A stretch of 50,512 nucleotides of DNA, taken from positions 1 to 50,512 of the IMG/VR virus record IMGVR_UViG_3300038365_000119; one strand, 5' to 3'. The translations under genes and the position numbers were made by a program. The first letter of the stretch is position 1. Every line of letters begins with the position of its first letter. The notes beneath the pieces were generated by a model. That model worked only from the letters and a program-made list of their open reading frames with translations, did no database searches and had not been told where the DNA came from. This document shows, piece after piece, positions 2,607 through 49,797 of the stretch. This stretch comes from a virus. Taxonomy: Duplodnaviria > Caudoviricetes.

Positions 2607-2626
2607 TGTCAATAGTAAATGCGAAA
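2607..2626 (+). repeat. Left terminal inverted repeat
   Basis: tgtcaatagTAAATGCGAAA, 29 bp beyond the transposase stop; matches the reverse complement of 49382-49400 (tgtaacatTAAATGCGAAA). Confidence 0.65.
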
Positions 2627-2654: not shown

Positions 2655-3695
2655 TTAGACAAGCGCGGCGACGCATTCCCGGAACATCATTTCGGCGGTT
2701 TTCCAACCAAATATCGCCCGCGGGTAGTTGTTCACCCATTCTTCAAGCTTCTTGATTGCGGCGACGGTGACTTTCCCAAAATCGGTTCCTTTCGGGTACT
2801 GTCGCCGTATCATTTTGTTCTGATTCTCGTTTGACCCTCTTTCGAAACTACTGTACGGGTGGCAGTAATAGAACTTTGTGCGCGGCCCTTTCCTGATTGC
2901 GGACCTTTCAAGCCTTTTCACGTCGGAGAACTCCACCCCGTTGTCAACCGTGATCGTTTGGAACACCTTTTTGAACAGCGGGCCGTACCGCCTTTCGATT
3001 CGGTCAAGGCCCTTGATCGTGCTTTCCTCGGTCCGGTCCTTGATCGGCTCTATGATCTCTTTCCGGGTCAACCGCTCCGTGAGTACAAGAAGCGTTTTCT
3101 TTGAAGATTTTTTCGCGCTGTAAACGGTATCCATTTCCCAATGACCGAACGTTTCCCGCGCGTCGATCTCCGCCGGGCGGTTCTCTATGCTTTCCCCGCG
3201 CGGCGGGCGCTTCATCTTTTGAACTTTATGATAGGGGCGTTTCTTTTTCGGCTTCACGGGCAAATCATTGTTCGTGAGATGAAGAAATACCCCTTTTTCA
3301 ATATAGCTGTATAGGGTGCTTGTGCAAATAGTAGTTTGGAACTCTATTCCTTTTTGCTTTATCTCCCCAAGAGCGGCGGCGGGGGAATAGTCCTCTTCTA
3401 TTATTTTTTCCTCTATGTAATCGACAAGCTTAAAATCTCTTCCGATTTTCAGCGGCGCGCCTTTCGCGGAAAGGTTTTCCCGGTACTTCTTTTCGGCTTC
3501 GTCCGGGTTGTAGCGGATTTCGGTTGTCCAGTCGGTATTTAGATGCGTGTATGTCCCGCGCTTCAATTCCCGGTATACCGTGCTGATATGCACATGTAGT
3601 TCCTCTGCAATTTCCGCCGGGCCGTGCCCGTTGTTCCGCAATGCTTCGATTTTATAGCGGTCTGTCTTTGAAAGATGTTTGAATCTGCGCCCCAT
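2655..3695 (-). CDS. IS30-family DDE transposase (346 aa), probable phage integrase/excisase
   Basis: N-terminal HTH (FKHLSKTDRYKIE..HISTVYRELKRG); DDE motifs GHWEMDTV, TITVDNGVEF, YSSFERGSNENQN; ATG at 3695 after GGAGGT RBS. Confidence 0.93.
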   Translation of the reverse strand: MGRRFKHLSKTDRYKIEALRNNGHGPAEIAEELHVHISTVYRELKRGTYTHLNTDWTTEIRYNPDEAEKKYRENLSAKGAPLKIGRDFKLVDYIEEKIIEEDYSPAAALGEIKQKGIEFQTTICTSTLYSYIEKGVFLHLTNNDLPVKPKKKRPYHKVQKMKRPPRGESIENRPAEIDARETFGHWEMDTVYSAKKSSKKTLLVLTERLTRKEIIEPIKDRTEESTIKGLDRIERRYGPLFKKVFQTITVDNGVEFSDVKRLERSAIRKGPRTKFYYCHPYSSFERGSNENQNKMIRRQYPKGTDFGKVTVAAIKKLEEWVNNYPRAIFGWKTAEMMFRECVAALV

Positions 3696-3713
3696 ATCAT
3701 TACTACCTCCATA

Positions 3714-3756
3714 GGAAAAACCCCGCCCATGCTTCGGTGCAAGGACGGGGCTTTCC
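3714..3756 (-). terminator. Terminator-like hairpin in the transposase leader
   Basis: Minus strand gccccgtccttgc..gcatgggcgggg followed by ttttt, just before the RBS. Confidence 0.5.
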
Positions 3757-3804
3757 GCGTTGTCCGCGGGCGGTAATTTTCCTCTTGCTCCCTCGGTTGC
3801 TATA

Positions 3805-3862: not shown

Positions 3863-4105
3863 TTATTCTTGTGTCATCAGCCAATCAAGGCTTACGCCTA
3901 ATATTTTAGATAGTGCCATGAGTTCATAGTCTGCGACAAACCGGGTTCCGCTTTCAATTCGGCTTACGCTGTCCCGCTCCATTGTGATACCTGCTATCTG
4001 CAATTTCGCGGCAAGGTCGGCTTGCGTCATGCGTTGTTTTAACCTCGCTTCCCTCACGCGTCCGCCGCAAAGGTTACTTTTTCCTTTGTAGCCATATATT
4101 TTCAT
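3863..4105 (-). CDS. XRE-family HTH transcriptional regulator
   Basis: RVREARLKQRMTQADLAAKLQ..RDSVSRIESGTR HTH_3 pattern. Confidence 0.85.
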   Translation of the reverse strand: MKIYGYKGKSNLCGGRVREARLKQRMTQADLAAKLQIAGITMERDSVSRIESGTRFVADYELMALSKILGVSLDWLMTQE

Positions 4106-8633: not shown

Positions 8634-8951
8634 TCATTTTTGGGCCGCGGCGCTCTCCATCCTGTCAATCCGTTTGTGTGCCTGTTTTGCGGATTCTTCC
8701 ACGCTTGTCAGCCGGGCAATAACTTCAATGTGCTGGGCTTCCTGCTTTTCGTCCTGTCGTTCCTGCTTTCGCTTGATGTCGTCGATTCCGGATTTTATGT
8801 ATCCGATTTCGGTTAGGACGGTTCCGTTTTTTGCGCCGTCGCCTTGATCGTCTTTCTTTCGGTTCCGGTTAAAAGCCGCATACCCGAATACAATGGCGCA
8901 CACGGTACTGATACCCCCAAGAACGGCGATTACAGCGTTTAACTCATTCAA
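8634..8951 (-). CDS. Lysis-module membrane/coiled-coil protein (holin or XhlA-like)
   Basis: N-terminal TM segment, C-terminal VEESAKQAHKRID; start overlaps the RT stop. Confidence 0.6.
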   Translation of the reverse strand: MNELNAVIAVLGGISTVCAIVFGYAAFNRNRKKDDQGDGAKNGTVLTEIGYIKSGIDDIKRKQERQDEKQEAQHIEVIARLTSVEESAKQAHKRIDRMESAAAQK

Positions 8952-10033
8952 TTTTCCACCTCCGCTTCCCGATAGATTCGGTTCAGCTTTTGCCGGAACC
9001 CGTAACTGTTGAAGTGTTTCAGCATTCCCCGATAGGAAGCGATACTTCGATCAAAAGTTTCCCGCGAAATCTCGCCGCTTTTAAGCGCCGACGAAAGGAA
9101 TTTGACGCGGCTTTGAATCTTCTGCGCGGTTTTCTTCTTTAGCTTCCGGTGCGTCGCCCATATCCGGTAGCCGACAAAATCAATTCCCATACTGCACGGC
9201 CTGATTGCGGTTTTCCTGTTCAGGTTCAGCCGCAATTTGTCGTTCATGAAAGCTTCGATCTCTTGCTTTACCTGTGCAAGAAAACGCTTGTCCGGGTGAA
9301 GAATGATAATGTCGTCCATGTACCGGACGTAATAGTGAAGCCGTAGAACGTGCTTCGCGTATTGGTCCACTTCGTTCAAATAAAGGTTTGCGAACATTTG
9401 CGACGTGAGATTGCCTATCGGCATTCCCACGTCGTCCAGCCATTCGTCCGGCCCGATTGCGTCGGGGTCGCACCCCAGCGGCAAGCCGAATTTCGTATCT
9501 TCGCATTGAATGATCGTCGTAAGCAGATCGATTAGTGTTTTGTCCTTGATTTTCCGGTTTAGAATCTCAATCAGCACTTCATGATCTACCCGGTAGAAAT
9601 ATTTCGAAACGTCCAGTTTCAGGTAATAATACCGTTCCGGCTTCCGCTCCGTTTGCCGTAACCAATACTGCAAGCGGTTTGCGGCCCGGTGCGAGCCTTT
9701 CCCTTTCCTGCAAGCGTAGGAATCGAAAATGAACTGCTTTTCAATGAGCGGGAAAAGCTGCCGGTATATCGCCCATTGAACCACGCGGTCACGGAACGGC
9801 AACGCCATGACAAGCCGCTTTTTCGGCTCGAACACGTAAAACGGGCGGTACTTGCCCGCCCGATAAGTCCCGTATATGAAATGGTTCTGAATATCTATCA
9901 GGTTCGATTCAAGGTTTCTGGAAAATCTCATGACCTCTTCGCGGTATCGCTTGCCTTTCCGCGCGGATTCCCAAGCCTGATAAATGTTTTCAAAATCATA
10001 AATTTTAGGGAATAGGCCCTTGATCGTTTCCGT
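8948..10033 (-). CDS. DGR reverse transcriptase (~361 aa, apparent ACG start)
   Basis: PFRDRVVQ, YLKLDVSKYF, GMPIGNLTSQMFANLYL, YVRYMDD, GIDFVGY; frame stays open 34 codons upstream of the ORF-track ATG to an ACG after AGGAGG; next to TR and avd. Confidence 0.93.
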   Translation of the reverse strand, partial: TETIKGLFPKIYDFENIYQAWESARKGKRYREEVMRFSRNLESNLIDIQNHFIYGTYRAGKYRPFYVFEPKKRLVMALPFRDRVVQWAIYRQLFPLIEKQFIFDSYACRKGKGSHRAANRLQYWLRQTERKPERYYYLKLDVSKYFYRVDHEVLIEILNRKIKDKTLIDLLTTIIQCEDTKFGLPLGCDPDAIGPDEWLDDVGMPIGNLTSQMFANLYLNEVDQYAKHVLRLHYYVRYMDDIIILHPDKRFLAQVKQEIEAFMNDKLRLNLNRKTAIRPCSMGIDFVGYRIWATHRKLKKKTAQKIQSRVKFLSSALKSGEISRETFDRSIASYRGMLKHFNSYGFRQKLNRIYREAEVEN

Positions 10034-48808: not shown

Positions 48809-49021
48809 TCACCGCGCCGCCTTTCCGACTTTAAGCGTCAACCACCATCCGGGGTTGTTCCGCTGTGCCTCGTTCGGGCACTTGTCGCAATTCTCCGCGG
48901 CGCACCCGGCACAATACCGTTCCTGAAAAGCTTTATCCCACGGACCCTCTAAAATCGGCAGGGACCGCAAGAACGCGCCCAGCGCCTCCGGGCTTTTCGT
49001 CACCCTTTCAAACTCCGTCAC
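48809..49021 (-). CDS. Small Cys-cluster protein
   Basis: GTG after GGAGG; YCAGCAAENCDKCP. Confidence 0.55.
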   Translation of the reverse strand: MTEFERVTKSPEALGAFLRSLPILEGPWDKAFQERYCAGCAAENCDKCPNEAQRNNPGWWLTLKVGKAAR

Positions 49022-49055
49022 CGTCAAAACCTCCGTTCCAGATTCGCCGCGGCTG

Positions 49056-49307
49056 TTATGCTTCGGCAACGACGCGCCCGCGCCGCTTGAAATTGGCTTG
49101 TACCGTCTGCTGTGCAAGAACGGGGTTGTAGCCCTGCCGCTGGTTGCGGTCAAGCTCTCCGGTTGCGCCTCGCTTCAATTCCCGGTAGATCGTCGCCGGG
49201 GTTACTCCCAGCCGTTCGGCAATATCCGCCGGGCGGTCGCCGGACAAATACCATTTCGCAATTTTCCGTCTGTCCTCAAAATCAAGGTATTTATACTTTC
49301 CCGCCAT
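49056..49307 (-). CDS. Stand-alone IS30-type HTH protein (83 aa), first gene of the early operon
   Basis: KYKYLDFEDRRKIAKW..DIAERLGVTPATIYRELKRG..YNP aligns with transposase N-terminus RFKHLSKTDRYKIEAL..EIAEELHVHISTVYRELKRG..YNP. Confidence 0.85.
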   Translation of the reverse strand: MAGKYKYLDFEDRRKIAKWYLSGDRPADIAERLGVTPATIYRELKRGATGELDRNQRQGYNPVLAQQTVQANFKRRGRVVAEA

Positions 49308-49381
49308 GCTTTCACCCCGTTTCCGCTGTGTTTCCGTCTAAAATCAAGCAAAAAAATAAATGCGTCAGAGGCTTGAACCTC

Positions 49382-49400
49382 TTTCGCATTTAATGTTACA
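49382..49400 (-). repeat. Right terminal inverted repeat
   Basis: Reverse complement tgtaacatTAAATGCGAAA shares an 11-bp core with the left end. Confidence 0.65.
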
Positions 49401-49433
49401 ATCTTCAAAAATAAAAAAAATTGAAAAAACCAT

Positions 49434-49462
49434 TTGACAGAGCAGGGATGGCGTGCTATACT
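49434..49462 (+). promoter_or_regulatory. Host sigma-A promoter of the csp gene
   Basis: TTGACA (49434-49439), 17 bp, TG-c-TATACT (49457-49462). Confidence 0.8.
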
Positions 49463-49587
49463 ATAACCGTATTCTAAATGTACTAAATGGACTCGCATCT
49501 TTATGTAAGTCATAGTTCTTTTATGATTTACGAAGATGCGTTTTTTTATTTAACAAATTGGATATAATATTTTTGGAGGTGCTCTCA

Positions 49588-49797
49588 ATGGAGACAGGGA
49601 CAGTAAAATGGTTTAACGCAGATAAAGGGTATGGCTTTATCGCAAATGATAACGGCGGCGACGACGTTTTCGTTCATTTTTCGGCGATTGTGGCCGACGG
49701 CTACAAAAGCCTGACGGAAGGCCAGAAGGTAACCTTTGACGTGGAAACCGACCCCCGCAACGGCAAGCTGAAGGCTGCCAATGTAAAGCCCGCCTGA
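49588..49797 (+). CDS. cspA: Cold-shock protein (CspA family)
   Basis: [40 protein letters not shown]; GGAGGT RBS. Confidence 0.95.

Follow-up and report, generated by a model that had tools for sequence, protein, structure and literature searches.

Phages mobilised by an IS30-family transposase, the IScream or Lagaffe-type phages, have recently been reported as abundant in the gut. In Faecalibacterium phage FP_Lagaffe the integrase was described as an IS30 transposase, and the flanking direct repeats were called surprising (Cornuault et al. 2018, PMC5883640). Wirbel, Hickey et al. (2025, PMC12823448) coined the name 'IScream phages' and described a second, inward-directed IS30 gene as 'deprecated': its length varies greatly, from 183 to 4175 nt, it is 'typically truncated or fused' and without the catalytic domain, and it is likened to the decaying insertion sequence (IS) of a composite transposon. 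A 2026 preprint (PMC12934698) uses the term 'truncated transposase' for this gene. We have analysed such a gene in IMG/VR virus record IMGVR_UViG_3300038365_000119 (Caudoviricetes), a stretch of 50,512 nucleotides that is the complete record and is called the window below. The window contains a prophage of the Lagaffe/'IScream' type, with genes almost all on the minus strand, in which an IS30-family DDE transposase at the left end is used for integration and a small helix-turn-helix (HTH) gene lies inside the right end. Our comparisons of sequences indicate that the small gene is a real, conserved and selected gene, contrary to the published reading of a deprecated, decaying IS30.

A tblastn search of GenBank phages with the small protein gave 13 records, including FP_Lagaffe (58% identity) and phage nd4 (60%). 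Lagaffe gp38, annotated as 'DNA binding protein' and assigned to PHROG 11420, belongs to the same gene family and has the same place, inside the end opposite the outward IS30 transposase; in the free Lagaffe genome it follows directly after the transposase. In print the gene is either a DNA-binding protein or a deprecated or truncated IS30, whereas here it is under selection and stands behind a predicted junction promoter and a hairpin. The passages returned by full-text searches of the literature gave no functional reading of the gene, and no selection, junction promoter or terminator, for these phages. The phage class and the existence of the inward gene are already in print. What appears to be new is the evidence from selection that the gene is functional, the putative promoter aimed at it, the candidate terminator built from the inverted repeat (IR) and a partial explanation of the length variability.

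IS30 itself forms a strong promoter, Pjunc, at the junction of its left and right inverted repeats (IRL and IRR), and this promoter drives its transposase (Dalrymple 1987 as cited in PMC9333248). As proposed for the locus studied here, the promoter arises from IRs that abut across 2 bp, and it fires into the gene beside one IR. The arrangement differs in that the transposase of the phage approaches the junction from the opposite side, with the proposed promoter facing the small gene and the early genes of the phage. Unlike in IS30 Pjunc, a terminator-like hairpin follows directly after the -10 box. Intrinsic terminators in general are stem-loops followed directly by a U-run, as is the case here (6-9 U in 18/18 families), but the 5' arm of this hairpin doubles as the inner part of the IR and begins 0-3 nt past the -10 box.

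Products that consist of only a DNA-binding domain are known from other mobile elements. InsA of IS1 and OrfA of IS911 bind the IRs and repress both the IR promoter and transposition. They are likewise a short N-terminal DNA-binding part, and the same logic is proposed here. The difference is that InsA and OrfA come from the transposase gene itself (from an upstream frame or when frameshifting does not occur), whereas here the gene is separate and anciently diverged, lies about 46 kb from the transposase in the prophage, and has a predicted function. In phage Mu, the repressor c and MuA have homologous N-terminal DNA-binding domains and compete at shared sites, which affects early transcription and transposition. 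Mu is a transposable phage with a regulator that shares the type of DNA-binding domain of its transposase, as we propose here; it differs in fold family and transposase family. Moreover, Mu repressor maintains lysogeny, whereas the small protein is predicted only after the ends join. A DNA-binding-domain-only relative of a transposase that acts as regulator is of a kind known from other elements, and it is by analogy that we extend it to this phage.

The small gene and its relatives

The two genes compared in this section are the following.

49056-49307, minus strand: small HTH gene, 83 amino acids (aa), ATG start; HTH_38, phrog_11420; paralogue of the transposase N-terminus
49313-49318, minus strand: ribosome-binding site GGGGTG, 5 nt before the ATG; similar GGAGG/GGGGTG sites in relatives
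2655-3695, minus strand: IS30-family DDE transposase, 346 aa, outward-directed; NF033563, phrog_4646, HTH_38 and rve

The first-pass annotation of the window had described an intact 83-aa open reading frame (ORF) that is a diverged homologue of the DNA-binding N-terminus of the transposase, and we could confirm both points. The ORF has an ATG start and no internal stop, and BLASTP aligns its residues 1-77 with the first 79 residues of the transposase, counted from the ATG at 3695 (31/79 identical, 39%, E 4e-13). Residues 4-47 match Pfam HTH_38 (PF13936) over the whole of its 44-position profile (49.2 bits, with the cutoff at 27; E 4.3e-13), and residues 4-82 match positions 3-81 of the 82-position profile of PHROG 11420, 'DNA binding protein' (E 1.6e-37). 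The small protein is not an IS30-family transposase: it has 83 aa and matches neither rve nor NF033563. Its match to the excisionase-type HTH_17 stays below the cutoff (16.8 against 27 bits), and it has no match to HTH_3, the domain of Cro/CI-type (XRE) repressors. It belongs to the 'inward-directed IS30' genes of IScream/Lagaffe-type phages, that is, IS30-related ORFs without a catalytic domain at a distance of under 1 kb from the end opposite an outward full IS30 transposase.

An AlphaFold2 model made with a 21-sequence alignment (mean pLDDT, the predicted local distance difference test, 88.6) has three helices, a beta-hairpin and a C-terminal helix. Judged by these matches, the 83-aa product is a stand-alone paralogue of the N-terminal DNA-binding module of the transposase, composed of a three-helix HTH_38, a beta-hairpin and a C-terminal helix. 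Among solved structures, a search by sequence gave no close relative; its best matches were a designed repeat protein and an uncharacterised structure solved by nuclear magnetic resonance. Foldseek against the PDB gave weak matches only, the best to Pax5/Pax6 paired domains at E about 0.1, and we draw no conclusion from them.

A scan of IMG/VR with the small protein confirmed 225 relatives, and 80 loci were kept. The ORFs that carry the match are bimodal: 41/80 loci have a small ORF and 39/80 a transposase of 319-414 aa, with nothing between. For the analysis of selection we used 50 small genes (those of the window, Lagaffe and nd4, and 47 from IMG/VR loci), re-called from the start nearest to the aligned start. 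All 50 are uninterrupted and encode 68-99 aa, with start and stop region conserved; 35 are distinct at the DNA level. The ratio of non-synonymous to synonymous substitution rates (dN/dS, Nei-Gojobori) was calculated for the 595 pairs of distinct sequences, 130 of which were usable at 0.03 < dS < 1.5; these pairs are not independent of each other. The median dN/dS is 0.30 and the maximum 0.76, with 125/130 pairs below 0.5 and 0/130 at 1 or above. Pairs taken from separate clades agree: L013/L011 have 9 synonymous and 0 non-synonymous differences, and dN/dS is 0.17 for L044/L078, 0.25 for L022/L028, 0.31 for L021/L048 and 0.25 for the window and L010.

In an unrooted maximum-likelihood tree of 86 columns, one branch with 100/100 support separates 26 small proteins from 27 transposase N-termini, and the subclades on the two sides broadly correspond. 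A single such branch together with matching subclades points to one old split followed by joint inheritance and not to repeated truncation. Residues R13, Y41, E43, R46, G47 and Y60, invariant in the small family, are invariant in the transposases too. The first-pass annotation had held that the gene is not IS debris and had named dN/dS and length conservation in relatives as the way to check this. The relatives bear it out: copies are intact in 50/50 cases, at a median dN/dS of 0.30 and lengths of 68-99 aa, with purifying selection, an old lineage separate from the transposase N-terminus, and no random truncation or neutral decay.

The published variability in length deserves a separate comment, and the gene downstream of the small gene enters here.

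48809-49024, minus strand: Cys-rich early gene, 71 aa, no family, about 30 nt past the stop of the small gene

An exhaustive search of 1.84 billion representative proteins with the small protein gave 799 matches at E <= 1e-3 and 243 at E <= 1e-10, and 15 matches were read individually. There is no full-length transposase among the best 150 matches, which include 7 long multi-repeat proteins. Many of the library matches have 110-250 aa with the HTH domain at one end. Four N-terminally extended proteins of the nd4 lineage (P0015, P0024, P0028, P0038) share the segment '...SIIIKRTETQLSRLCVFSLLQPHRTEV...', which is a translation of the right IR and hairpin of that lineage; the sequences before it are unrelated. 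A shared IR/hairpin segment that is preceded by unrelated sequence makes these extensions look like ORF calls that start in differing host flanks, i.e. ORF-calling artefacts. P0067/P0068 and P0129/P0143 also have a shared segment after unrelated sequence (protein comparison only). In P0016, P0033 and P0040 a C-terminal extension starts with Y at the stop position and continues into unrelated protein-like tails, and in P0003 the small domain forms one protein with the Cys-rich early protein encoded downstream. These C-terminally extended proteins may be true fusions or products of gene calling. At least part of the length variability published for the inward-directed gene appears to be an ORF-calling artefact. 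As a separate observation, the seven long proteins (P0039, P0041, P0054, P0070, P0075, P0088, P0100; 567-1001 aa) contain 7-13 matches to the small HTH protein each and are arrays of HTH_38-like repeats.

Ends, junction and hairpin

The ends of the prophage and the signals in them are as follows.

2601/2602-2626, plus strand: left inverted repeat (IRL), adjoining the 3' end of the transposase gene; core TAAATGCG at 2616-2623
49382-49406/49407, minus strand: right inverted repeat (IRR); its inner 8 nt are the 5' arm of the hairpin; end set from the empty site
2585-2601, no strand: left copy of the target duplication, AAAAATAAAAAAAATTG; a single copy in the empty site
49407-49423, no strand: right copy of the target duplication, AAAAATAAAAAAAATTG, from sequence and the empty site
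2607-2612, minus strand: -35 hexamer TTGACA in IRL, outward-facing, 6 nt from the tip at 2601; TTGAC(A/T) kept in relatives
49393-49398, minus strand: -10-like hexamer TAACAT in IRR, 9 nt from the tip at 49407; TAnnAT homologues in relatives
49357-49392, minus strand: predicted hairpin, outer stem UAAAUGCG/CGCAUUUA, inner stem AGAGGU/GCCUCU
49350-49356, minus strand: run of 7 U directly after the hairpin, a terminator-like tail read from the sequence

The IS30-family transposase at 2655-3695 is the integrase of this phage. It matches NF033563 (E 4.7e-67, 226.5 bits against a cutoff of 80) and phrog_4646 (E 1.1e-138), has the Pfam domains HTH_38 and rve, and ends with a stop codon 53-54 bp inside the left end. 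IRL and IRR form an imperfect inverted repeat of 25-26 bp, with 19/25 positions identical without gaps as read from the window sequence, and a 17-bp direct repeat, AAAAATAAAAAAAATTG, directly flanks both. An empty site is seen in metagenome contig L106 (1470-1500), which runs from the left flank straight into the right flank with the repeat once. Contigs of three more runs (X2, X3, X5) match the window from 49407 or 49409 on and have left-flank sequence before that point. Among the pieces listed for these runs, none links phage sequence to the host flank and none has a loose end at the phage tip, a lack of cover to which we attach no weight. From these uninterrupted sites the prophage is about 46.8 kb long, with ends at about 2601/2602 and 49406/49407 and a target duplication of 15-17 bp depending on where the IR tips are placed. 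The first-pass annotation had put the start of the small ORF 93 bp inside the right end. This needs correction: according to the empty site and the loose contig ends, the end is 49406/49407 and not 49400, and the ATG is 99-100 bp inside. IS1630, another IS30-family member, makes long target duplications. The duplication of E. coli IS30 is 2 bp (PMC9333248), far shorter than the 15-17 bp found here. A host promoter follows shortly after the A-rich stretch to which the target duplication belongs. For the rubrerythrin-like protein of the host flank no close host relative was found among genome contigs, the best match being 57% identical.

In all 31 circle-form loci the order is transposase, junction, small gene, on one strand, and the same order is seen in Lagaffe, nd4 and MT835543, which are in the joined-ends form. 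The gap between the transposase and the small gene is 133-357 bp, and 1504 bp in L011. Clostridium phage Saumur agrees with this order too: its record is opened at the ends, with the transposase and the small gene at opposite extremities. MT835543 was considered as a counter-example, with its small gene far from the transposase, and was rejected: it has another transposase gene, a more diverged one, whose end is directly upstream of the small gene, and a normal junction separates the two. Transposase loci without a small gene are left ends of prophages, in which the IR tip is followed by many unrelated host sequences, indicating diverse integration sites. Near-identical contigs differ only in the 2-nt spacer between the IR tips. 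The L057 series has seven dinucleotides in 12 loci (TA, TG, CG, AA, TT, GC, CA) and the L039 series five in 5 loci (TC, AA, GT, TT, CA). Such a variable 2-nt spacer indicates an IS30-type circle junction with bases derived from the flanks, and the relatives show what characterises it, abutted IRs with a short variable spacer.

The junction of the relatives has TTGAC(A/T) in the transposase-side IR, 17 nt, and then TAnnAT in the other IR, aimed at the small gene. In 25/27 distinct junctions the match that spans the junction is the best sigma-70-like one of the intergenic region, with 9-11/12 consensus positions. The exceptions are L031, with a better match upstream, and L067, with a 57-bp insert between the tips. 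In the window, the -35 box is 6 nt and the -10 box 9 nt from the respective tips, which with a 2-nt spacer gives the 17-nt promoter spacing. The layout of this putative promoter is seen in relatives, and for the window phage it is deduced from coordinates and homology. A promoter scan of the window found no minus-strand promoter at 49307-49400. In most families the start codon comes just 20-47 nt after the U-run, too short a distance for another promoter. In L067 (region 2288-2500) an 11-nt direct repeat, TTCTTGAAAAT, borders the 57-bp insert, which may have come from a tandem or adjacent insertion or from contigs being joined in assembly via a target duplication.

Between the -10 box and the small gene is the palindrome that the first-pass annotation had noted, and the sequence is exactly as it described: TAAATGCG-tc-AGAGG-cttgaa-CCTCT-tt-CGCATTTA at 49357-49392. 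It had also seen there the IR core repeated in inverted form, and this stands: TAAATGCG is found at 2616-2623 on the plus strand and at 49385-49392 on the minus strand, with the inverted copy at 49357-49364 on the plus strand. The right end alone has such an extra copy, which is 20 bp inside the right IR. The hairpin folds at -18.1 kcal/mol (z -5.7, with 0/200 shuffles as good). With the -10 box as anchor, the corresponding stretches of 18 sequence families were folded as well. An equivalent hairpin is present in 18/18 families, starting 0-3 nt past the -10 box and ending 0-2 nt before a run of at least 6 U, with energies of -14 to -31.6 kcal/mol and z of -2.7 to -7.7. The predicted fold has both parts of an intrinsic terminator, a stable stem-loop and an immediate U-run. 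No Rfam family was found anywhere in the window.

Across families the outer stem has paired substitutions: ATGCG/CGCAT, GTGCG/CGCAC, AAGCAG/CTGCTT, ...ACGCACAG/CTGTGCGT..., ...GGTTACAC/GTGTAGCC... and, in MT835543, ...GAGTAACAAGGG/CCCTTGTTACTC.... The inner stems pair in every family although their sequences are unrelated. Where the left and right IR cores are not the same, in L057, L022, L023 and nd4, the third copy matches the right core, the one with which it pairs. Note that the 5' arm of the hairpin is the IR core, for which reason the 3' arm is complementary to it. The paired substitutions, the unrelated but pairing inner stems and the third copy that follows the right core are better explained by an RNA hairpin than by two binding sites for a protein. 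On this comparison the palindrome is best read as an intrinsic-terminator-like hairpin with the inner right IR as its 5' arm. The right end of Saumur (L108 1-130) has two successive hairpins with AAATGCG arms, each with a T-run; its small gene is shorter (60 aa) and comes after both hairpins.

Proposed role and competing explanations

A further gene of the left end enters the proposed mechanism.

3866-4105, minus strand: XRE/HTH_3 gene, 80 aa (HTH_3 E 2.8e-09), on the same strand as the transposase and preceding it

By analogy with the elements described at the outset, we give a probability of about 0.5 to the following reading: the small protein is made only from joined ends, binds the IRs and regulates the junction promoter and/or the access of the transposase. 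In the free, circular phage the ends would be joined across a 2-nt spacer, so that the -35 box of the left IR and the -10 box of the right IR form a junction promoter. This promoter, which would be split in the prophage, would be directed at the small gene and at the early genes that follow it. Transcription entering from the host or, in the circle, from the XRE-transposase (repressor-transposase) operon would be halted by the hairpin after the -10 box. As the 5' arm begins 0-3 nt past the -10 box, a transcript started there would lack the arm; one that starts 5-9 nt past the box would lack most of it and probably escape termination. The small protein, predicted to use an HTH of the transposase's kind for binding to the IR region, would then lower the activity of the junction promoter and/or keep the transposase off the reactive junction, and the circularised genome would be committed to lytic growth.

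The small gene is linked to an IS30-type transposase and an IR in every phage examined. Upstream of the gene, the one promoter that can be recognised is in two parts in the prophage, so that the small protein is expected only after the ends join, be it after infection or after the formation of circles by copy-out. The first-pass annotation had proposed three roles, an excisionase-like directionality factor, a transposase inhibitor and a Cro-like repressor; the predicted expression only after end joining makes the first of them the least likely. A transposase inhibitor or a Cro-like autoregulator fits that predicted timing. There is also a hint in favour of this reading from co-variation between the IR core and a helix of the small protein, where GCG goes with A-T...R/K, GCAG with A-A...E and GT(T/A)ACA with K-T...L/A.

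Several observations weigh against the reading. The co-variation rests on 2-3 independent changes with L021 as an exception, and the recognition helix of the transposase is almost constant while the IR cores vary. The transposase is more constrained than the faster-evolving small gene (median dN/dS 0.04 against 0.30). The promoter score is not rare in AT-rich DNA, being reached by 113/1350 shuffles, and for this reason the case for the promoter rests on its conserved place and on the 17-nt spacing kept across differing spacers. A consensus terminator scan did not list the 49357-49392 hairpin, which it missed because of the internal loop. In the L039 and L022 lineages there is a second strong hairpin with a T-run between the first hairpin and the small gene, and it would stop junction-promoter transcripts as well unless there is antitermination. 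Finally, the small gene is not always the first gene behind the hairpin: other ORFs stand between the two in L011 (1120-2490), L006 (1633-2015), L008 (293-1075) and L019. The head of the early region thus qualifies as a hot spot at which genes are inserted and shuffled. In L017/L019 the interposed ORF is the Cys-rich gene that is located downstream of the small gene in the window.

Among the alternatives, the one that survives best makes the small protein a general early regulator, Cro- or Ner-like, with operators elsewhere (for example at the XRE-transposase operon or at later promoters) and with a likeness to the transposase that reflects ancestry only. A short stand-alone HTH gene that heads the early region would suit such a role, as would the presence of other genes ahead of it in some relatives. 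At several helix-3 positions the small family is variable and the transposases are invariant, which fits a shifted DNA specificity, and the dN/dS of the small gene is above that of the transposase. We nevertheless consider it unlikely. The gene is seen only with an IS30-type transposase and beside an IR in every phage examined, and its family-invariant residues are those that are invariant in the HTH of the transposase. Nor is the IR core motif enriched elsewhere in the phage, with the qualification that the true binding site may differ: the window has 5 copies of the TAAATGCG 8-mer against 2.5 expected, not a significant count, as 10/100 shuffles reach 5.

It is less likely still that the small protein is a positive, excisionase-like recombination cofactor that binds the right end and aids assembly of the transposase on the junction for integration or on the prophage ends for copy-out. 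Strict linkage to the transposase and the IR would be natural for a cofactor, and so would asymmetric ends with the extra inverted core at the right end only, but this extra copy is accounted for by the hairpin. If made only from joined ends, a cofactor could limit integration to circles. An excision factor, on the other hand, should be made in the prophage, where the promoter is split and the hairpin blocks read-in. The HTH_17 match, as mentioned, is below the cutoff. Moreover, E. coli IS30 transposase alone replaced lambda integrase and gave a functional phage (Kiss et al. 2003, via PMC12823448).

An alternative that concerns the palindrome is that it is mainly a double-stranded operator for a dimer of the small protein or the transposase, with the hairpin potential as a by-product. 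Its outer arms reproduce the IR core exactly, as inverted copies, and change together across families, and the site would overlap the predicted start of the junction transcript. An operator does not account for the unrelated inner stems that always pair, for the U-run directly after the hairpin in 18/18 families or for the third core copy that follows the right IR core in L057, L022, L023 and nd4, and we think it improbable as the main role. The operator and hairpin roles can coexist.

The published reading, in which the gene is a truncated IS30 left from a composite-transposon-like ancestor and decays without function, can draw on the truncated and fused genes reported in print and on the many lengths of the predicted proteins in the protein library, but it is hardly credible given 50/50 intact copies with conserved start, stop region and length, dN/dS well below 1, a small lineage separate at 100/100 with subclades broadly matching those of the transposase, and extensions in four nd4-lineage proteins that are translated IR and hairpin joined to unrelated sequence.

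Returning to a small protein made from joined ends, a wider version of that proposal would make integration itself the lysogeny switch: insertion would split the early promoter, the IR terminator would seal the early genes against outside transcription, circles formed by the transposase in copy-out would rebuild the promoter, and its first product, the HTH protein, would sit on the junction, block re-insertion and so commit the genome to lytic growth. We regard this as doubtful. If it is true, lysogeny would be maintained through promoter splitting and not by a repressor alone.

Neighbouring features and wider meaning

Several other features of the window and its relatives are recorded here. 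On the minus strand at 3705-3765, directly before the ribosome-binding site of the transposase, there is a hairpin (-29.2 kcal/mol, z -3.4) followed by UUUUU, and a TTGCGT-17-TATAAT-like promoter, read by eye, is downstream of the XRE gene. Hairpin and promoter may form an attenuator of transposase expression. The left IR tip carries an outward-facing consensus -35 box, which in the prophage abuts host DNA, and the transposase gene reads out of the element without a terminator, in the window as in the prophage left ends in L054-L081. These could give hybrid promoters with host DNA or read-out into the host. Many insertions of relatives adjoin host promoters or terminators.

A reverse transcriptase gene at 8948-9931 on the minus strand (RVT_1, 3.3e-20) is near the tail/lysis region, as expected for a diversity-generating retroelement. 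For Lagaffe a reverse transcriptase and an active diversity-generating retroelement were reported (PMC5883640). In the right host flank, a promoter TTGACA-17-TATACT with 11/12 consensus positions belongs to the region 49434-49462 of the plus strand. It is followed by a unit of about 80 nt (49434-49547, plus strand, together with the promoter) that ends in a hairpin and T-run and has no Rfam match. The gene for a cold-shock protein at 49588-49797 comes just after it, and the unit may encode a small RNA or act as a regulated leader of csp.

A selected gene at the second end changes the picture of these phages from 'a phage caught between two ISs' to a system with a dedicated regulator. The gene of this regulator would be wired to a promoter that is assembled by the joining of the ends, and guarded by a terminator within the inverted repeat. 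It is important to note that the reported length variability of the inward-directed gene, apparently at least in part a product of ORF calling, should be read with caution. The proposal offers a concrete, testable model of how a phage with a DDE transposase may choose between insertion and lytic growth.

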